Assembly (NCBI RefSeq): GCF_000143415.4
Contig: NW_003314509.1
Span: 1 to 19,817, forward strand
From: Selaginella moellendorffii
Taxonomy: Eukaryota; Plantae; Lycopodiophyta
Reading direction: 5' to 3'
DNA: 19,817 nt
In this document: in pieces, positions 3,133 through 17,535 of the stretch
How the letters are laid out: each line of letters opens with the position of its first letter
Numbering within the stretch: the first letter of the stretch is position 1
Program-made: the position numbers and the translations under genes
The notes under the pieces: generated by a model
What the model saw: only the letters and a program-made list of their open reading frames with translations
What the model was told of the DNA's origin: nothing
Database searches by the model: none

Positions 3133-3905
3133 GGAATGGCTTATTCTGACCTTTAAAGTGATGATTGTAAAATATATGAACTTTCAACATTTAAATTAAG
3201 CTGAATATTTGGTATCTCTTTGGTATATATATATATTACGAGGGTATAAAATTCCATTGGTGCTTCACCATATTAACTCTTATATGGTTATTATTTGATA
3301 CTGCCAACAAAGTTAAGTTTACTTTTGTGATTGCTATAAACTACCGATGCTAGGTTTTGGGATCAATATTTGTTGAGCATTCTTCCATTTGTTTGAGTGG
3401 AGTTTATTAAGCACTTAAGTTATATATAAGTGGGATAATAACAACACAACAACTTCCATCATTATCCATCAGTGAAGTATAAAGTGGATGACTTGGTATT
3501 AATTCATTTTCCTAATGTTACAATATATGGTTTGTCTAAGGGGCCCCTTATTCAGTGGAACGGACCATATTAAATATTGTGGTAAGTTAAACTACATATT
3601 TATAAGGTTTGGTAAAATATTCAACAAACCAATCCTTTAGAAATTATATATATGCAATAACTTAAACACTTTGTATAAAGGGATCAGGCACCACGTACAA
3701 ATCCACCAATGCCTCCTCTTGATGTTCCTCTAAATCCTAGCCTATCAACTTGAAAACCTTAACTACCTTTCATCCTTCTAAAAACATAATGTGAGGTCTA
3801 AGTGTATAATTATGATGTTGTATATAAATATTAGTATAGTGGTATTTTGATAGTCATCAGATTGACTACAATTTAGACCACTTACTTTTGTATATAAACT
3901 ATGGC
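3133..3905 (+). mobile_element. Old degenerate Ty3/gypsy fragment (integrase C-terminal half plus truncated 3' LTR), same family as the 5761-10620 element, opposite orientation
   Basis: 3133-3575 aligns by eye to the reverse complement of ~6035-6465 (e.g. attggtgcttcaccatat; gagcattcttcca; aaagtggatga; tctaaggggc; ggaccatat). 3790-3905 (TGTGAGgtctaagtgtat...) aligns to the reverse complement of the 10452-10620 LTR. Confidence 0.9.
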
Positions 3906-5760: not shown

Positions 5761-5848
5761 TGTGAGTACTTGGAATATGGAAAGGGAATATAGAAAATGT
5801 GCATCTTAATTAGCCCAAATACCCTAGCTTATATACAAGAGTGAGTGG
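5761..5848 (-). repeat. 3' LTR (partial, runs into N gap) of the tRNA-Ala gypsy element
   Basis: tgtgagtacttggaatatggaaagggaata...aattagcccaaa...gagtgg matches 10452-10531. Confidence 0.9.
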
Positions 5849-6030
5849 NNNNNNNNNNNNNNNNNNNNNNNNNNNNNNNNNNNNNNNNNNNNNNNNNNNN
5901 NNNNNNNNNNNNNNNNNNNNNNNNNNNNNNNNNNNNNNNNNNNNNNNNNNNNNNNNNNNNNNNNNNNNNNNNNNNNNNNNNNNNNNNNNNNNNNNNNNNN
6001 NNNNNNNNNNNNNNNNNNNNNNNNNNNNNN

Positions 6031-9000
6031 TAACACTCGATATGGTCCTTTCCCTGCGCAAGGAGCCCCTTAGATAAACCACATACTGTAAGATGGGGAA
6101 AATAGACTAACACCAAATCATCCACTTTGTACTCTGCAAGTGGACGATGATGGGAGTTGTAGTGCCATTGTTGTCCCATTTGTACATGGCCTAAGTGTGT
6201 GGCAAACTTAGCTTGGACAAGTGGAAGAATGCTCGTTAAATACTGATCCCACGATCAAGCATCGGCAGCTCGTGGCAAGGTAAACCCAGCTCCATTGGTA
6301 ATATTGGATCATGACTATATAAAAGTTTATATGGTGAAGCACCAATAGAACTCTACACCCCTGTGACATATGCATACCGAAGAGACGGCAAATAACCATC
6401 CCAATCCGAATGCTAAAAGTTCATATACTTCGTAATCATCCTTTTGAATGTCTGAACGAGCCGTTCCACCAGATTGTCTAATTGTGGATGATAAGCACTT
6501 GTGAAAGTGTGGCGTATCCCCAACCAAGACGTCAAAACATGAAATGCCTCAGCCACAAATGCGGACTATTATCCGAAAGAATTTGCTTTGGACAAGAATG
6601 CTGGAACACCACTCGATTGAGGAGGAAATATCCAACAGCAGTTGCAAAGGTGCTAGCAAAAGCACCAACTTCCACCTAACGAGTCAAGTAGTCAGAAGCA
6701 ATAATAACATACTCATTGCTAACAATCGACTGTGGAAAGGTCCCATAAGATCAAATGCTACCAACTCAAATGGATGAGAAATTATAATTGACTCCAACCG
6801 TCCTTCCGCAACACGAGGAGGAGTATTACGAGCTTGGCACCAAATGTAGCTATGCACATATCGAATAATATCATGTCGCATCTCCGGCAAATAGAAAGAC
6901 CTGTGCAACTTCTTGGTTACACGACAATGTCCCATATACCCACCTAGAATAGGAGAATCATGGTAAACTGCAAAATAAAGACAGAAGACACCACCAGCCG
7001 TAAATGATTATCAGGATCCGTCCCCACAAAATAAAGAAGGCCGTCTCTTCAAGGCGATATTGAGAATGTAAATGCCAGAAAGGCAAATCATTAGCAAGTG
7101 ATGCAGGATTCTCAAACCCATCTCGAATCTTTCGAATCCATGGCTGAATCTTTTGAGCATTGTAAACCTCATCAAGAGAAAGTAAATCTTGCTTTGCGCC
7201 TTGTAGACATTGAACGTCAAGTACAGCAACTACCGATGGCAATGAATCCTTGTCTAGAAAATCCACAGATGTAGGAACAATAGGTTCATCAAAAATATGA
7301 GAAGAGAGTGGAAAAGGAAGAGGAGCTCGAGAAAAGATATCAGCATCAGCCATAGAACTCCCTGGGCGATGAATAACATCAAAATTAGTTATTTGAAGCT
7401 TCAAAGCCCATTGAGCAATACGACAAACCAGGTTCTTCCACTTCAATAATGAAGTAATAGCAGCATGGTCACCTTCAAGTAACGTCCGAGAACCATGTAG
7501 ATATGCATGAAGTTTCTTGAAACCCCAGACTACTGCTAAATACTCCTTCTTTGTTGTGGAGTAGTTTATCTCCGCTGGTTGTAATGTACGGCTTATATAT
7601 GCTATGGGATGGTGCTGACTAAGCACATTCGAGCTCTCTTGCATCAACACACCTCCAAGACCAATGTCAAAAGCATCCACATGCAAAATAAAAGGTTGAG
7701 TGTAGTTAGGATATGCCAAAACCGGAAGAGTTGTTAATAGGTCTTTGAGATCCACGAACACCCACTCACAATCCAGAGACCAGATGAAAGATGACGCTGA
7801 TGACTTCAGCAACACTCGCAACAGTGCAGTGCAATCAAAAAAATGATCCACAAAACGACCAAGATACTGCACCTTGCCCAGGAAGCACTGCACATCATTC
7901 ACACACTTCGGAGTAAGGAACTTTAGAACAGCCACAAGTTTGTAAGGATCAACTTGCAAACCCTCACGAAAAACACGGTACCCAAGATAAATTGTGTTTT
8001 TGGACCCAAACACGCACTTCGACCGCTTCAGCTTTAAACCAACATCGTGTAGCCGATCCAACACTTTACAAACATCATGAATGTGCTCCTCCCACACGTC
8101 TCCTCCAAGTGGATCAAGACATCATCAATGAAGTCAGTAGTCACCTCTGGCATATCGCAAAGAACCTTGTCCGTTATCCGCTGAAAAGTTACTGAAGCAT
8201 TGTTTAAACCAAATAGCATCACCAAGAACTTGTACAAACCAAATAGTATACAAAAAGTAGTCTTAGGAATATCTTCTTTGGCCATCCGTACTTGCCAGTA
8301 CCTAGAAGTAAGATCTAGGTTGTTGAATCAACGACTTTGCCCAAGCAATCCAAGAGATCAATAGTGTGATGAAGAGGGTAAACATCTAGGATCATCACTT
8401 TGTTTAACAAACAATAGTCGATGCAGAAACAAATACTCCCATTAGGCTTCATCACAAGATGAGGTTCATATGCCCAAGGATTCCACGACTTCCGAATAAC
8501 ACCCTTTTCCAACATCTCTTTGACGTTTGCACGTAAAATTTTGATCTCCTTGGGTGACTGACAACGAATAAAAACCTTGATTCAATGAGCATCCTCGGTT
8601 GGAATCGAATGACATGTGGCAATCTTAGCCTTAGATGATAGGTCAAATTCAAAGAGATCAGAATACTCCTTTATGAGCTGGTCAACTATTGCAACACAAA
8701 GATTGTCAAAGGGATTGGAAAAGGGAAAAGCAGAATAAAACAAAAACATAAGAGGAAATAGTGGGGGAACAAAAGTAATGGAAGTAGAGGTAAAAGTAGA
8801 GAGACAAAGAGGTATGGAAGTGAGAGGAATGGATGAAACATAAGGAAGTATGAGACAAGGGGGAGAAGCTTCAAAGTCACATTTAGCATGATTGCGCTGT
8901 AACTAATCCATACTAAGAATGAGGTCAAAAGCTTGACTCGGCACCACCCGCAATGACTGCAACTCAAGCTCAAGATCGCCCACATACACAACCAGGTCTG

Positions 9001-10217
9001 CCTCATCCCATGCACATATATGTGTACGGCTATTGCCATAAAGAATGAAAACTGGTTCCACCGCACAATGCAAGTGTAGACGGCAACGTGTGGCAATAGG
9101 TCGAACAATAGAAAATAAACTTGAACCTGTATCAACCAACACAGAGAGAATAATAGGAGACCTCTTGTTATAAAAATGAGTTTGGAAAGCAAACACTGGA
9201 TGAACCGATGCCAAGTGAACCCCTTGATAATACTCTCGAAAGAAAGATGGAGGGGTCACTAACTTATTTGTGCAAGGTCCTTTGTTACTTGTGTGACTCC
9301 TCATTTCCCGAATGCATCTTGGTGTCCAAACCTTCCACTACAGTAGCACCAATAGGATGTTGCTGACACCAAGGTCTCCACCCAGGAAATGGAGGTCGCT
9401 AATCCGGAAAATGTTGACAACGCTGATAAGTATGACCAACTTCATCACACGCCCAGCAGCGAACATCACGGCCACAACTACGTCCTCGCCCTTGTCCTTG
9501 GATTCGAGTAGCAGTAGCATCAACCTCCATTGGAATATAACCATCACCCATAGGAAGTGGAGCTGAAAGATGTGTAACGAGAAGTGGAAGAGGCGACATC
9601 TTATAACATTGTGCCAAGCGGAGAGCATCATCAAGGGTGGTAGGAGCAAGTGCATGCACAATTCTGACAAGATCTTGACAAAGTGCTGGCCATAACATTC
9701 CTAGTTTGATCCGCTCCGACATATTTGGCTCCACACGAAGCAAAAGACTTCGGAAACAAATGCCAAATTGCATCACTGACTCAGATGGCCTTTGGCGAAG
9801 ATGATGCAATTGTTGGAAGGCATCATCACAGTCGTCGGCATGTCCGAAGGTGCATTTGAAGATGTCCAGGAGAACACTCCAATCCCCACGAGTGGCTTCG
9901 CTCAAACCATTGTACCACTATAATGCTATCCCTTGAAAACACATGGGAAACTCACGCAAATGTTAAGCATCATCCTAAGAATGATATGTGGCAATCACCG
10001 TGAAGTGATCGAACCAAAGGTACATATCATCCCCAAGATTTCTGCGAAAGAACTCCGGCCGAACATGAGGATTGGCACCAAGAGCAGGAGGAGTTGTACC
10101 ATGTGTCGTGAATGCTGCCATCAACAGAGTTTCGTTGTTTAATTGCAAATGCATAGCATTAAGCAATTGTACCAATTGCTGCTCCAGAGTCAAAAGAGGA
10201 GATTGTTGATCTACCAT
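6031..10217 (-). pseudogene. gag-pol pseudogene (many stops and frameshifts)
   Basis: Gag: RPEFF..DD..LW, LRQRPSESV, PMEVD, zinc knuckle CWACDEVGHTYQRC (~9410-10217). Protease LVDTGSS (~9119-9139), FDLILSMD. RT FCIDYCLLN, FGLNNASVTFQR, FIDDVLI (~8120-8515). RNase H LHVDAFDIGLGGVLMQ, NYSTTKKEYLAVVW, ADADIFSR. Integrase zinc-finger remnant and PFELVAFDLMGPF (<6963). Confidence 0.95.
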
Positions 10218-10280
10218 GAAGATGAACGAAAAAGAAATAGCAAAAGAAGAGAAATGATAAAAAGCTAGAATGAAATGGTA

Positions 10281-10398
10281 GATCTAGACAATGCAAAAAA
10301 GCTAAATCTAAACTAAAATCATGAAAGGAAAGAATAAAAGAAAGGAAATGGAAAAAGTTAGATCTAGACGATGCAAAAGCTAAATCTAAACCAAAATC
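10281..10398. repeat. Short direct repeat (~40 bp, 80-bp spacing) in the element 5' UTR
   Basis: gatctagacaatgcaaaaaagctaaatctaaactaaaatc (10281-10320) versus gatctagacgatgcaaaagctaaatctaaaccaaaatc (10361-10398). Confidence 0.8.
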
Positions 10399-10432
10399 CT
10401 AAATCCAAGCACTCCTTAGGGACAATCAAAGT

Positions 10433-10450
10433 TACCCCTCATCTCCACCA
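10433..10450 (-). promoter_or_regulatory. Primer binding site complementary to tRNA-Ala
   Basis: Plus strand TACCCCTCATCTCCACCA versus the plant tRNA-Ala 3' end TACCCCGCATCTCCACCA as recalled (17/18). It lies 1 nt from the LTR. Confidence 0.85.
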
Positions 10451-10451
10451 A

Positions 10452-10620
10452 TGTGAGTGCTTGGAATATGAAAAGGGAATACAAAAATTGTGCATATCAA
10501 TTAGCCCAAAAACCATATACAGAAGCGAGTGGTTCGGATTGAAACCAATCCAACGGCTACCAAAATCCCATTACGCTAATATTAGTATATGGCATCATAG
10601 CCATACACTTGGCCCTCACA
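10452..10620 (-). repeat. 5' LTR, 169 bp
   Basis: TGTGAG...CTCACA terminal inverted repeat, adjacent PBS, homologous copies at 5761 and 3790. Confidence 0.93.
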
Positions 10621-10975: not shown

Positions 10976-11668
10976 ATGGAGTGAATATACTTGATGGGCC
11001 GCCCTAATCACGTGAATGGCAAGGTCCATGCTCGTGATAAGCTGGTCTCAAGAAAGTGATGGATTTGCTCCAGCAGCCATAAAATGTTTGCACTGTTGGG
11101 CACCAAGTCGTTCACGGCAATGAGCAATTTAGCAAACCAACGCATATAACTCAAGAGGTGAAGAAAGCAATTGAGAGGGCTATTCCTCTAGCTCCACTTC
11201 ACAATCCAGCAAACTTGGAGGTAACAGATCTTTACTTTCTTTTTCCAAAAAGAAAAATCCATTTATTTGTCCCATTTTTTCTCCAACCTTTCTCTTAAAA
11301 TGATCACAAAAACTTTCCAGGGAATTCAAATTGCTGAGGAGCTCTTCCATTGCCCCCACATAGCCGTCTTTGACACAGCCTTCCACTCCACCATCCCCTA
11401 GCTATCATACATGTATAGAATCCCCTAGAAGCTGTACAAAGAGCTGGGTGTGCGGCGCTATGGCTTCCACAGGACGAGCTACTAGTTTCTTCTTGGCGAG
11501 GCCTCCTGCGCTCTTGGAAGGCCAGTGCTGGAACTTAATCTCATTGCCTTCCATCTCGGCATTGGAGCGAGAGTGTGTGTGATCAAATATGTGGAATTGA
11601 TCAATACAAGCATGGGAATGACTCCACTCGAAGGTTTAGTGATGGCTACTCGGAGTGGTGGTGTTGAT
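10976..11668 (+). pseudogene. ackA: Acetate kinase pseudogene, spliced, 3'-truncated
   Basis: 11041-11220: [59 protein letters not shown]. 11321-11668: GIQIAEELFHCPHIAVFDTAFHSTIP*LSYMYRIP*KLYKELGVRRYGFHRTSY*FLLGEASCALGRPVLELNLIAFHLGIGARVCVIKYVELINTSMGMTPLEGLVMATRSGGVD. These match acetokinase signatures (GHRVVHGG, PLHNP, VFDTAFH, RYGFHG, HLGNG, TSMGxTPLEGLVMxTRSG). The 5' extension to 10976 (ME*I, putative ERI) is weaker. Confidence 0.95.
11221..11320 (+). other. Phase-0 spliceosomal intron (100 nt) of the acetate kinase pseudogene
   Basis: GAG|GTAACA...T-rich...TTTCCAG|GGA. Removal joins PANLE to GI in frame. Confidence 0.93.
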
Positions 11669-12254
11669 CTTTTACAGACTTAATTATTAGTGAATAAAGC
11701 TTATATTAAAACACAAAAGTATTCCAAATAAGTTATCATCCGATAAATCAATAGTAGAGTACATGAACCACTAAGATCAGCATATTTGGAAAACATAGGA
11801 TTCACCATCTAACAAAATTCAATAGCCAGTGTATCATCAAGGAAACTTAATGATAAAACTTAACTACTAAAGATTGTAGATAGCATGTCAAACAACTTAC
11901 AAAAGATAACTTAAAGAACACAAAGTATCATTAACTAGCAAGTAAGATGCTCGTGAATGTACCACTTAAAGGAAATAACATCCAATCTATTGAATGTATC
12001 ACCTAATGCCAATCATTGCACTAGCCATTCTGAATAAATCCTAGTCAACAATATGAAGTAACTCAAGTTGCTTAAACAAGTGTTAGCAACATCCTATCAA
12101 TGTCTCAAACCCGAAAGACCAATCCAAAGCAAACCATAAAAACATGTGATATTGTGAAAAGCTATAAGCTATTAAAGCAAATAACTAACTATCACAAAAG
12201 ATCATCAATCATCCTATGCTATCCGCCTCTATCCTTCACTAGACCTAAGGAAAA

Positions 12255-12267
12255 GGCTCCAATACTA
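12255..12267 (-). promoter_or_regulatory. Second PBS copy outside the 3' LTR
   Basis: ggctccaatacta-aat-TGTAAG, same arrangement as 16431-16452. Confidence 0.8.
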
Positions 12268-12270
12268 AAT

Positions 12271-12979
12271 TGTAAGCCATACATTTTTCCTTTCCAATTT
12301 GCCAGCTTATTTCGTCTATCCGACCAACACTGCCTTGGCTTTTGCCAAATTCCCTCACCAAGGTTCCTGCCTATGGTACTAACTCTTACTTGGTCCTACT
12401 TGGTTTCAGCTACTCACTGCATGAGCAATAGAGCGTTAACCATCCATTCATGGATTCCCAAATCTCTCCCAATCCCCCTCCCCGGGTTAGATTGGACTTA
12501 AGGTTCGGCTACACTCCCTATAGGCACAAGCAGCCAAGCACACCAAGCCTCCAAGTTCCTAACATCCCTTGGTACCATAAGACTTGATCATGGGACCCTC
12601 TAAATCCCAAGTCTTGAGTGCAACACATGCTTTATGACGCCGGGGTGAAACACGATGGCATAACGGCCTCTCCCCCCCCCCCCACTTCCATCCCAAAGGA
12701 AAGGCCCAAGCCCTTGGGAAGGGCGAGGACCAATAAGCTGCAAGGTACTCAAGTGGGGCACCACTCCACATGAGCCGAGAGCACCGCAGTCGGTTTCCCT
12801 TTCGGGAGTGGGAGCTGTTCTTGAGCACTTCCTTGGGTGGCCCCTCTGGCACCATCCGAGTCCATGCTCACTCCCACCCAAGGCCCCTCGGCCCTAGTCT
12901 CAACCTCAAGTCAGTTTGGAAGCACCACTGAAGAGTTCCTTCAAGACTAGTTCTTGGACCTCACTATCCTTACTATACA
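12271..12979 (-). repeat. 3' LTR of the chromovirus
   Basis: TGTAAG...TACA, homologous to 16447-17154. A minus-strand purine tract AGGATAAAAAGAGATG (~12982-12997) lies next to it as a candidate PPT. Confidence 0.85.
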
Positions 12980-13724
12980 AACATCTCTTTTTATCCTATG
13001 ACTTGTTGACTATGTCTCCGGGGGCATCCCCCAACTTAGCAGTGTGCCTAAGTTAGCCTCCTTGGCCAAGAGTCCATGACAACGGAATATAGGTGTCCCT
13101 ATACCCCTCACCTCACCACGCTCTAGTATAGGGTCGAGACTTGAACCCAGCCTTGCTTTATTAGGGGGTTGGGACTCGAACCCAACCTCCGTAGAATATG
13201 TCTACGGATTTGACATCCCCGCAAGGAGTCGGGTATAGTTTCCTACGCCTGGTTGACCTAACTAGCCCATGCTAATTACCTTACCTTCGGCGTGCCTTCG
13301 GGTCCCAACATATGCCATTGCTCAACTTCACAAATTGATACTTTAATTGAACTTTGCATAAGTACATAGAGTTCTGCCTTGTAGAAATTCCTCCACTAAA
13401 TCTCGCTCATTCGCTAGGTTCTCCTTTGGTTCCCATGTTTCTTCGCAGTGTGGAAATCCTTTCCACTTCACATAGAACTCTCTCACCTTGCATCCTTGTC
13501 ACTTGCTCTTGTGTGCATTGATGATGGCCTCGACTTCATATTCCTCCTCCCCTTGGATAACCTCAAATAAAAGTCTTACTTGGTCCTTGTGAAACGGATC
13601 TTCAAAGTACGGCTTGAGTAAGTTCACATAGAACACTAGGTGCATCTTCCCCATCTCTCAAGGAAGTCAGAGATGGTAAACCACTTTACCGATTCGTGCC
13701 TCAATCTCATAAGGCCCAGCAAAC

Positions 13725-13776
13725 CTGCTTAAGGAACTCAAGATCAATTCAATTCTAGGAATACATGCATTTTTAC
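13725..13776 (-). other. Putative spliceosomal intron, 52 nt, phase 2, in integrase
   Basis: CAA AG|GTAAAAATGCATGTATTCCTAGAATTGAATTGATCTTGAGTTCCTTAAGCAG|G TTT GCT GGG CCT TAT. Removal gives KLTQRFAGPY. Confidence 0.82.
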
Positions 13777-14194
13777 CTTTGGGTCAACTTCCAGCTGATC
13801 CCACTTGGCAGCCTGAGGTTCTTGGTGTTTAGCCACACCTTCTTCCCAACTTGGAACTTTACATTCCGACGCTTCTGGTTCGCATATTTGGTTTGCCTTT
13901 GTTGAGCCCGTTCCAAGAAATCCCTCACTAGAATCCAAATGTTGAGTCTTTCCGCCATGAATGCCTCCACTGCGGGTAACTCTCCATGGTACTCGGCCAT
14001 GCCAAGCTCCACAGGACCTTCAATAGCTCGCCCATTGATGACTTCCCATGGACTCACCCCGATACTCGAATGTGGTGAGTTGTTATAACATATTTCCGCA
14101 AGTCCCAAATGACTTACCCAATCGGTCTGGTCTCCTGAGACATAGCATTGCAAATAATCCTCCAGTTGCCTATTCACCCTTTCTGTTTGTCCGT

Positions 14195-14241
14195 CTGTCA
14201 AGAAGCGTTAGTGCCATCAAACTTGACTTAATACCCAATAC
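14195..14241 (-). other. Putative spliceosomal intron, 47 nt, phase 1, in the integrase catalytic core
   Basis: CAC CCA TAG ATA A|GTATTGGGTATTAAGTCAAGTTTGATGGCACTAACGCTTCTTGACAG|AC GGA CAA ACA GAA AGG. CTAAC branch motif present. Removal restores HPQx(D/N)GQTERVN spacing. Confidence 0.85.
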
Positions 14242-14464
14242 TTATCTATGGGTGATAGGCTGTGCTGAATTTCAACTTGGTGCGATACTGTTTTAGAAGA
14301 GTTCTCCAGAACTTACTAGTGAAGATCTTATCTCAATCTAAGATGATCTCTTCCGGCCTTCCCTGCACTCGAACCATTTGTTCGAAGAACAACTTCGCTA
14401 CACCTTCCGCATCCACTTCCGTTGTGGTGGGTATGAAATGTGCCATCTTCGAAAATCGGTTGGT

Positions 14465-16387
14465 GCTTGAGCTCCTCAAGTTCTTTTTGGTGCAAACGAT
14501 AGGGGGAACGAACCACCACCTTAACACCCTTGACCAACTCAATCTTATGTTTTATCGGTCGTGCCGGGGGCAACCCCGCCGGTAGCTCCTCCGGCATGGT
14601 ATCTTGGAATTGGTCCAACACCCGCTAGATCACTAAAGGTACTTCTTCTATTCCCGTCTCTTTGTCACTCTTCATGGAGAGTAAGCACGGAAATGCTACC
14701 TTGGTTCCTTTAGTGAGTTGTCTTCTCATGGACACCAGGTTTAGGCAAGAATCTTTGGCTTTGCATTGCCCTACCTTTAGATCCTGGGCCTCCACCCTGG
14801 ATTTTCTTCCTTGGGCATTCACTAGTACCACAAGGTTCCTACCTTGTCCATGCAAGGCTACCATGAACCAATCCATCCCGAAGATCACGTCAAATCCTGC
14901 CATGTCCAACACGGTGAAATCCATGTCTACTTTCCATGTCCCTATTTCGACTCTCGCTTGTCGAAATACCTCATCGGTGCTTTGGCTACCTTGAACAAAC
15001 TCTATAGTCCTTGGTTCATCCAGCCGCTGCACCGTTAGTCCAGCTTGCCAGACTATGTTTGTAGCCACAAAATTATCCAAAGCACCTGTGTCAATAAGGA
15101 TCTTAACAAAACTACCTCCGAGCTTCCCTCGGAGGGTTAGTAGATGTTGCGAACAACTCTCTACCAAAGTTGCTGGGGTAATGAGTGACTTTGAGTTAGG
15201 GACTAGATCACATACCTCAGTTTGGATTTCATCCAACTTAATGGCCATATTGGCTCTAGCCTTCTTCGGGTAGGGACATTCCCTCGAAAAATGTCCCACT
15301 TCACCGCAGTTGTAGTATATGTTGTTTCCCACGTTACTAACTGACTTGACCTTCTTATCCGTGGGTTTGTCTTTTTTTGCTTGACTCCCCTACGTACTTA
15401 CTCACTAGCCACCGGATTTGCCTTTCCGGAACCCCGAGGACTCATTCTTAGAGAAACTCTTCTTGAATTTCCCTTTGTTATACGTTCCCCTTGGTTTGGC
15501 CCCTTTGTTAAATGTGGACCCCAACCTTGTCGTTCCCCTTTCGTAGGTTATCGTTGAAATGCACCTTAATGGCTGCATCCAACGCTTCCTTGTAGTTGGT
15601 CGTGTTCCAACGCATTACCTCATTGCGAGCCTAGGTTTGCAAGCTTGATATGAAGGCATGGAACGCATCCATATCCCCCATGTCCGTGACAAGTATCCTC
15701 TTTGCCATAAACCCTGAATGGTTCCAGTCTACTTTAGCCTACTAAGCTCGTCTTTTAGATGTAGAGTAGCATTTGGAGGAACGTAAGTCATGCGGATCCT
15801 TGCCTTCATCATTTCCCAAGTGGCCACCGGTCCTTCGTTGGCCTCTATCATTCTCCACCAAGACTTGGCATTATCTGCTAAGTATGGTTTTGCACATGAG
15901 ACCTTCTCCAAGCTTGGTAACCGCAACACTTGAAAATAGTCCTCCATATTGTAAAACCACTCCTCCACCACCTTATAGTCATTCACTCCCTTGAAGATCG
16001 GTGGGGGCTTTGGTTTGTACTTGGGACTGATTCCACTTTGGTCTGTTCGACCTTGTTTGGTTTTGCCTCAGTCCCTGCCGAAGGGTTCACACCTTCTGCA
16101 CTGCCAGCATCCGCAGTCTTTTGCCTTTTCTTCCGCTTCTTATCACGCTTTAGTTTGCGTCCGAGAGTCTCCAGCAGGGTATTGGTCTGTGCCAATTGTC
16201 CTTCTAGAATGTCCAATTGAGCCTTGGACGACCGAACCTTACTACCGGACTCTTGTTTGGAAGTTTCCTCATTGGAGTCCTCCTCATGCAAGGATTCCTC
16301 ATCCATAGCCTTTTGTTCGACTGGAGGCTCCAGCTCTGGAGGAGGTTCCATCTCCGCCTTGGTTTGTTTCCGCCCTGCCTTTGCCAT
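14465..16387 (-). pseudogene. gag-protease and pre-RT linker of the chromovirus (frameshifted)
   Basis: ATG at 16387, 44 nt after the PBS. PPPIFKGVND..VEEWFYNMEDYF..AKSWWR..TWEMMKARI..LK*TGTI; knuckle YYNCGEVGHFSREC; protease ILIDTGALDNFV..DVIFGMDWF; linker GLPPARPIKHKIEL..SPYRLHQKELEELK, ending abruptly at ~14465. Confidence 0.93.
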
Positions 16388-16430: not shown

Positions 16431-16443
16431 GGCTCCAATACCA
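16431..16443 (-). promoter_or_regulatory. Primer binding site, initiator tRNA-Met-like (variant)
   Basis: Minus strand TGGTATTGGAGCC versus canonical TGGTATCAGAGCC, 3 nt from the LTR end. Confidence 0.85.
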
Positions 16444-16446
16444 AAT

Positions 16447-17155
16447 TGTAAGCCACAAATTTTTCCTTTCCAATTTGCCAGCTTACCTTGTCTATCCAAC
16501 CAACACTGCCTTGGCTTTTGCTAAGTTCCCTCGCCAAAGTTCCCACCTATGGTACCAACTCCTACTTGGTCTTATTTGGTTTCAACTACTTACTACACAA
16601 ATAACAGAGCATTAGCCATCCATTCATGGATTCCCAAATCTCTCCCAATCCCCCTCCCCGGGTTAGATTGGACTTAAGGTTCGGCTACACTCCCCACAAG
16701 CACAAGCAGCCAAGCACACCAAGCCTCTAGGTTCTTAACATCCCTTGGTACCACAATACTTGATCATGGGACCCTCTAAATCCCAAGTCTTGAGTGCAAC
16801 ACATGTTTCGGGACGCTAGGGCGAAACACCGTGGCCTAACGGCCCAGTATGGGTACCTCTACCCCCCCACTTCCATCCCAAAGGGAAGGCCCAAGCCTCT
16901 GGGAAGGGCGAAGACCAATGAGCCGCAAGGTACTCAAATGGGGCTATGAGCTGAGAGCACCACAGTCAGTTTCCCTTTCGGGAGTAGGAGCTGCTCTTGA
17001 GCACTTCCTTGGGTGGCCCCTTTGGCACCACCCAAGTCCATGCTCACTCCCACCCAAGGCCCCTCAGCCCCAGTCTCAACCTCAAGTCAGTTTGGAAGCA
17101 CCACTGAAGAGTTCTTTCAAGACTGGTTCCTGGACTTCACTATCCCTATTATACT
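16447..17155 (-). repeat. 5' LTR of the chromovirus (may extend to 17616)
   Basis: Homologous to 12271-12978. About 26 differences in the first 180 bp by manual count, nearly all transitions. Confidence 0.85.
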
Positions 17156-17231
17156 TTTGGAACCCCTGTAGCCCCCCCCCCCCCTGGGAGATGCACGCTT
17201 TGGGCTTTCACCCCTTGACCTGTATTAGTAC

Positions 17232-17535
17232 TTGGACTCGGTCTCGGACTTGATCTTGGACTTGATCTCGGACCCGACTTTGGACTTGGTCTTGGACTCG
17301 ATCTCGGACCCAATCTCGGACTCGACCTCGGACTCGGTCTCAGAACCGATCTCGGATCTTGGACTTTATCTCGAACTCAGTCTCCGAGTCGGCCTCGGAC
17401 TCGGTCTCAGAACCGATCTCGGATCTTGGACTTTATCTCGAACTTGGTCTCCGAGTCGGCCTCGGACTCGAGCCCAGACTCTATCTCAAACTTGGTTTTA
17501 AAGTCGGTCTTAGACTCGATCTCAGACTCGGTCCC
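17232..17535. repeat. Degenerate hexamer array (CTCGGA/CTCGGT/CTTGGA/CTCGAT) with a 67-bp higher-order duplication
   Basis: Units start at 17327, 17394 and (partial) 17461, each ctcggactcg. The first two differ at only two positions. Confidence 0.92.

Follow-up and report, generated by a model that had tools for sequence, protein, structure and literature searches.

The element and its surroundings

The window, i.e., the whole 19,817-nt stretch of Selaginella moellendorffii contig NW_003314509.1 (assembly GCF_000143415.4) that was analysed, carries on its minus strand a decayed LTR retrotransposon with an interrupted integrase. Its features, in the 5' to 3' order of the element, are as follows.

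16447..17154, minus strand: 5' LTR of ~708 bp, ending ...CA, with a G-run and eroded first bases (direct repeat and alignment)
16431..16443, minus strand: primer-binding site (PBS) 3 nt past the LTR, with two decayed bases, of the tRNA-Met type by its motif (sequence)
15405..16387, minus strand: gag, with its ATG at 16387, frameshifts and stops (Retrotrans_gag PF03732, E 4e-6 on 15732-16067)
14625..15389, minus strand: CCHC knuckle and aspartyl protease (zf-CCHC, E 1e-6; RVP_2, E 2e-15)
14465..14624, minus strand: linker immediately before the reverse transcriptase (RT), ending at a deletion (tblastn jump)
14242..14464, minus strand: integrase exon A, covering the core as far as the helix that precedes the catalytic Glu (38-53% identity to six homologues)
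14195..14241, minus strand: intron 1, 47 nt, GT...CTAAC...CAG, GC 0.40, in-frame TAA at 14230
13777..14194, minus strand: integrase exon B, from the GQTE motif to where the GPY/F region begins (homologue alignments)
13725..13776, minus strand: intron 2, 52 nt, AG/GT...CAG/G, GC 0.33, in-frame TAA at 13775
13343..13724, minus strand: integrase exon C, GPY/F region and type I chromodomain (Chromo PF00385, E 3e-12)
12984..12997, minus strand: polypurine tract (PPT) (sequence)
12271..12983, minus strand: 3' LTR of 713 bp, TG...CA, with a G-run (repeat and alignment)
12208..12270, minus strand: second PBS and leader stub (~50 nt of leader) behind the 3' LTR (local alignment running on to 12208/16386)

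The LTRs, PBS and PPT, the chromodomain at the C-terminus of the integrase, and the flanking pieces, which keep the gag-PR-RT-RH-IN order although RT-RH is deleted, are those of a Ty3/gypsy chromovirus. A sequence-only reading of this DNA had taken the unit for a true LTR element, and our search bore this out, as LTRs, PBS, PPT, gag, CCHC, protease and chromodomain were all found; a domesticated integrase or a Ginger-type DNA transposon is excluded by the LTRs, gag and protease. The chromodomain cage in exon C has Tyr, Trp and Phe at the three aromatic sites. At 14464/14465, a deletion has removed RT, RNase H and the N-terminus of the integrase. Its size is put at 580-600 codons from a tblastn jump from residue 243 to residue 829 of homologue P0004 and from the median homologue gap of 598 aa; in sister contigs, loose ends occur at 14455-14460, with other sequence beyond the deletion point. 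With this deletion, the stops and the frameshifts, the copy is dead. The LTR-body-LTR-PBS layout is that of a tandem or recombinant element. Since a second PBS and leader follow the 3' LTR, neither can a target-site duplication (TSD) be called nor the LTRs be dated, and the divergence of the LTR pair (713 vs 708 bp, K2P 0.11) was discarded as an age.

Several other decayed sequences lie in the window. Immediately upstream of the eroded 5' LTR is a C-run with an array of ~12-bp repeats (17172-17526). Between two retroelements, ~1 kb from the element, lies a decayed acetate kinase fragment (11083-11683, plus strand) with a 100-nt GT-AG intron (11221-11320), which is 80% identical over 65 aa to S. 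moellendorffii protein P0045, the next best being 64-65% or less; this relic makes a spikemoss the likely host. An unrelated second Ty3/gypsy element, also decayed, occupies ~5761-10517 on the minus strand (gag 9399-9917, RT/RNase H 6958-8581, integrase zinc finger 6684-7007; end repeats 5761-5826 and 10452-10517, 86%), and an inverted older copy of its integrase end is found at 3133-3560 (~72% similar to 6049-6467). A GC-richer island with several open stretches of 60-86 aa in very AT-rich DNA (2100-2640) is perhaps a host gene fragment.

Two inserts within the integrase

In a tblastn-type comparison with uninterrupted homologues, the integrase region of the minus strand fell into three pieces in three successive frames. 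The lengths (47 and 52 nt, neither divisible by 3), the GC contents (0.40 and 0.33, against 0.43-0.49 in the coding pieces beside them) and the in-frame TAA stops of the two GT...CAG inserts were recomputed and agree with what had been read from the letters. The three alignment blocks of six uninterrupted homologues meet at the insert sites. It had also been claimed that excision at GT-AG restores a conserved integrase motif with no residue gained or lost, and the homologues substantiate it: among the 193 collected, the spacing from HP to DGQ is exactly two residues in 159 of the 162 matches of HP..DGQ[TS]E, which is the spacing that excision yields, and when X was written at the junctions, no gap came within four residues of junction 1 in 186 of the 187 alignments across it, or of junction 2 in 145 of 163. 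The split integrase is thereby confirmed as a correct observation that is not due to chance.

In their GT-AG ends, branch motif, lower GC and frame restoration, the inserts resemble U2 spliceosomal introns, a clear CTAAC branch motif being present in intron 1 only. The two introns have no resemblance to each other, and a PPT-like run was visible in neither. Each is bounded by a 4-base direct repeat across its ends (14195-14245 and 13723-13778), for intron 1 in sister copies; repeats of this kind are expected where an intron was gained through staggered insertion or at a proto-splice site.

The inserts across the family

We then examined sister copies in DNA run X1, in which 10,655 contigs matched the whole region (15 of 31 joints among those listed) and 5,631 matched the narrowed interval 13690-14289 (all 8 joints listed). 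The sequence-only reading would have failed had the inserts been private to this copy. Instead, none of the 5,631 contigs skipped the 47- or the 52-nt insert, where contigs are to be read as showing presence and not absence; the same data do reveal deletions at a depth of 109-165, i.e., the depth of long single contigs. The X1 depth was unbroken through both introns, and intron 1 was bridged gap-free by contigs only 81-87% alike. As to the further expectation that splice signals are better kept than intron interiors, none of the 40 variant places of ≥12% in 13690-14289 fell at GT, AG or CTAAC, while three such variants per intron lay within the introns, and 4 of the 6 transversions were in the 99 intron bases vs 2 in the 501 exon bases (Fisher p 0.008). 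The donor context of intron 1 is canonical in most sister contigs and decayed in this copy. These observations support both inserts being introns of the whole family and not scars of one copy. The summed contig depth (0.05-1.0 million vs ~130 for long single contigs) is not a copy number and suggests a family of hundreds to thousands of copies. Run X8, labelled as organism B, keeps both inserts as well, but was rejected as cross-species support as its variants nearly equal those of X1 at low depth; its matches may be carry-over or come from a close relative.

Signs of splicing in RNA and of possible selection on the spliced frame

Three RNA runs (X21, X22 and X23), which bear the same species label as the DNA run but are different samples, were examined with 12% of each read, i.e., 9.2 million reads each. 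Only 5 (X21), 3 (X22) and 0 (X23) reads matched the stretch, which is a very low RNA level. One X21 read matches 14092-14197 and then 14245-14287, i.e., 149 nt with an exact 47-nt gap. This read was taken from the depth bins (44-nt and again 20-nt, the same read both times), as the joint table requires three reads. The gap is shifted by 3 nt relative to the ends of intron 1, as the short repeat at both ends predicts. Intron 1 thus appears spliced in one molecule. The junction proposed for intron 1 (14242^14194) was accordingly seen in one X21 read, and the one proposed for intron 2 (13777^13724) in none: no read lacking intron 2 was found among the X21-X23 matches, and none lacking intron 1 among the 3 and 0 reads matched in X22 and X23. 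Three reads (one from X21 and a pair from X22) cease to match at 13757, 20 nt inside intron 2, and continue with sequence unlike that of the stretch. This break may mark a poly(A) site, an alternative donor, a splice acceptor in antisense or a locus that is chimeric.

Shared and near-fixed variants were split at a share of 0.9, which was our choice. In exon B, 9 of the 13 shared variants were at third codon positions (p 0.009). The synonymous fraction of these variants (8/13) was borderline (p 0.053) relative to the 0.36 expected from CG/CHG, and did not differ from that of the near-fixed variants (8/17, p 0.34). Judged from these substitution patterns, there is modest support for the spliced reading frame being under selection.

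Clade and family

The closest protein homologue was 48% identical over exon B; among the 193 homologues collected, there was no close relative and none of similar length, and none came from viral contigs. Thirteen metagenome loci and two genome loci were distant, and the four that align over the region (L001, L002, L007 and L014) are uninterrupted at the junctions they cover. In a quick tree of the best 40 of the 193 homologues and the 4 loci, the nearest neighbours were P0170, L001 and L002 (SH-aLRT 93, unstarred), all uninterrupted where they cover the junctions.

Two features characteristic of Galadriel (Galahad) elements were found here, namely a tRNA-Met PBS and a type I chromodomain with the aromatic cage, as in the club-moss members. 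According to the relevant portions of a published survey, a tRNA-Met PBS occurs in 90% of the Galadriel elements and in 5% of those of Tcn1 (PMC6317226 Additional file 5), Galadriel elements have a single Gag-Pol ORF (PMC6317226), and 83% of the Tcn1 clade is without a tRNA PBS and self-primes (PMC6317226). The tRNA-Met-type PBS speaks against membership in the Tcn1 clade, and in our comparison of LTR and leader for Tcn1-type self-priming only one complementary 8-mer was found, away from the PBS position. Selaginella intron lengths are described as grouping with those of most fungi, sharply unlike other land plants (PMC6157073, in the part concerned with intron length), so introns of 47-52 nt need no fungal donor and a fungal origin was set aside as unneeded. 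The suggestion of a Tcn1-type element shared with fungi hence fell on three counts, i.e., the tRNA-Met-like PBS, the fungus-like intron lengths of Selaginella and an ORF geometry that fits a published family, SM1-Galahad.

SM1-Galahad of S. moellendorffii belongs to the Galadriel clade and was described from a consensus with hundreds of copies, no intact copy and no TSD (PMC3350952, 2012). In the sections of that paper that deal with the family, its ORFs are given as 3885 bp ending in the core integrase, then 316 and 309 bp, the last with the chromodomain, and its LTRs as 1076/1146 bp with G-runs of 11-25 nt next to a tRNA-Met PBS (PMC3350952); neither "intron" nor "splic-" occurs in the paper (PMC3350952). 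Read unspliced, our element yields one ORF of 318 bp, which starts at codon 14093 and meets its stop in intron 2, and another of exactly 309 bp, which starts at the ATG at 13654 and reaches the end. An ORF1 of 3885 bp would require 576 codons in the deletion, and the homologues have a median of 598 (range 364-630; 28 of the 55 long homologues being measurable). Both elements share the tRNA-Met PBS, the G-runs in the LTRs, the CCHC, the type I chromodomain and the three-ORF layout (316/309 vs 318/309 bp), with internal regions of ~5.3 kb in SM1-Galahad vs ~5.2 kb estimated here. The LTRs differ (1076/1146 bp vs ~710 bp here), perhaps because ours is another subfamily or from another species, the comparison being one of descriptions. 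The element is therefore likely to be SM1-Galahad or a close relative, and since the unspliced geometry gives 318/309 bp, the two introns thus explain the published three-ORF layout of SM1-Galahad.

The sister family SM2-Galahad shares with our element the domains, the tRNA-Met PBS and the TGT...ACA ends; it differs in that a single ORF of 4731 bp runs unbroken through the chromodomain, which makes it intronless, and it is intact and abundant, as far as the description of the family goes (PMC3350952). In the survey, intact coding sequence was counted in about 42 of 270 Galadriel elements (31, or 74%), a smaller share than in Tekay or Reina (PMC6317226 Additional file 5, as excerpted), and unrecognised introns in the club-moss members could contribute to this low intactness.

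Comparison with other intron-keeping retroelements

Reverse transcription is expected to purge introns on the sense strand. To our knowledge, the exceptions among LTR elements (Ogre, BARE1, copia, EVD and env splicing) have each one alternative intron at an ORF border. Ogre (Ty3/gypsy, Tat) resembles our element in having a sense-strand intron in its genomic copies and in needing a subset of its transcripts to be spliced for the full polyprotein; its single intron of ~270 bp lies between the protease and RT ORFs and gates RT-RH-IN, as summarised in the relevant passages (PMC6317226, PMC4408406, PMC3735527), whereas here two introns of ~50 nt lie inside the integrase domain and would gate only the integrase and chromodomain. 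As both introns lie inside the integrase, our element would work like Ogre and is not Ogre. Barley BARE1, Drosophila copia and Arabidopsis EVD (Ty1/copia) likewise have an intron in the packaged RNA and separate pools for translation and replication, with the opposite logic, in that splicing gives a Gag-only mRNA and the unspliced RNA the full polyprotein (PMC3735527, PMC5580714). In the passages on these elements, the BARE1 intron is 104 nt long (PMC3735527, PMC5580714), barley BARE1 packages an uncapped, unspliced, R-containing RNA and translates a capped one (PMC3735527), and EVD requires its intron sequence for full-length RNA (PMC5580714). Penelope-like elements also keep introns and occur in Selaginella, but differ in having no LTR/gag/integrase system and another transposition route (PMC8557442, in its relevant part).

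Introns inside the integrase of an LTR retrotransposon were not found reported in open papers and preprints, and passages of PMC5718144, PMC7175516, PMC6523491 and PMC12477816 had no bearing on them. What appears new is the position of the introns, their number and their direction, along with the interpretation of SM1-Galahad as a spliced gene; the principle has precedents in Ogre and BARE1, and the family itself is likely in print.

How an intron-bearing element may replicate

The reading we prefer, to which we assign a probability of about 0.63, is that of a high-copy chromovirus, with both introns in all sister copies seen, which reverse-transcribes unspliced RNA and makes full integrase only from spliced RNA. 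Partition between genome and message is the best reading of the data, the RNA packaged being putatively the unspliced one. From the unspliced full-length RNA would come Gag, protease, RT and RNase H, plus an inactive fragment of integrase that stops before the catalytic Glu; a complete integrase, including the GPY/F region and the chromodomain, would be made from the doubly spliced mRNA. Here we take GQTE, on established knowledge of DDE integrases, to be the motif of the helix with the catalytic Glu. Spliced RNA would be kept out of particles or be uncopyable, the simplest arrangement being two pools of transcripts like those of BARE1; it is presumably excluded because it keeps both ends, so that intronless copies would otherwise arise and spread, and none were seen. 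The introns would have been gained in the Selaginella lineage at AG/G-type sites, since SM2-Galahad and the homologues are uninterrupted. The earlier proposal that splicing controls the dose of Pol would apply to the dose of integrase and chromodomain, which intron retention would cut, but not to that of Pol as a whole, both introns being downstream of RT and RNase H.

Among the alternatives, the introns may be real and their splicing incidental, with integrase borrowed in trans from an intronless partner, e.g., SM2-Galahad. We consider this unlikely. Its merit lies in the reported contrast between SM1-Galahad without an intact copy and the intact and abundant SM2-Galahad (PMC3350952, in the sections on the two families), in the very low RNA level and in a borderline selection test; however, an incidental splicing fits poorly with splice and branch signals without common variants beside intron interiors with them, and with a third-position excess in an exon B that is out of frame unless spliced, and the borrowing leaves the survival of the introns through reverse transcription unexplained. 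In another alternative, the spliced RNA is packaged too and the inserts hold a signal needed for export, dimerisation or cDNA synthesis, making intronless cDNA a dead end. Insert lengths that stay gap-free in copies 81% alike, and the need of EVD for intron sequence in making full-length RNA (PMC5580714, in the passage concerned), would suit such a cis signal, but most transversions fall in the intron interiors and neither insert shows a PPT-like run, and we regard it as quite unlikely.

It is also conceivable, and in our view very unlikely, that an intron-bearing ancestor was amplified at the DNA level by tandem or segmental duplication and that no RNA step kept the introns. The tandem-like LTR-body-LTR-PBS layout of this copy and the lack of a reported TSD for SM1-Galahad (PMC3350952, as far as its family description extends) are in keeping with this, but the subfamilies are diverged (81-99% alike) with a codon-position bias, and the published consensus has a complete LTR, PBS, PPT and gag-pol anatomy (PMC3350952, same description). 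Least probable is that we are dealing with old insertions, and no introns, which became fixed in a founder that was non-autonomous, the gapped read stemming from a rare deleted DNA copy: there is a single gapped read and the RNA and DNA are from different samples, but two independent inserts both have GT-AG ends with exact restoration of the motif, a CTAAC branch motif is present, the gap of the read is exactly 47 nt, and no such joint occurs in X1 DNA.

Starting from the preferred reading, in which unspliced RNA serves as genome and spliced RNA as integrase message, a more elaborate version is tentatively possible, although we would not count on it, namely that the integrase introns act as a three-state switch in an autonomous element. 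The unspliced RNA would be the genome, RNA with intron 1 out would give a catalytic integrase without the GPY/F-chromodomain targeting tail, and RNA with both out a heterochromatin-targeting enzyme, in a family of very high copy number in which the introns are never lost. If such a switch is true, spliced RNA must be shut out of reverse transcription almost perfectly. Which RNA gets packaged and copied is a long-standing question for retrotransposons, and family-wide integrase introns are a built-in marker of that RNA, scorable through counts of intronless copies. In intron-dense genomes with short introns, ORF-based calls of "no intact copy" can hide live families.
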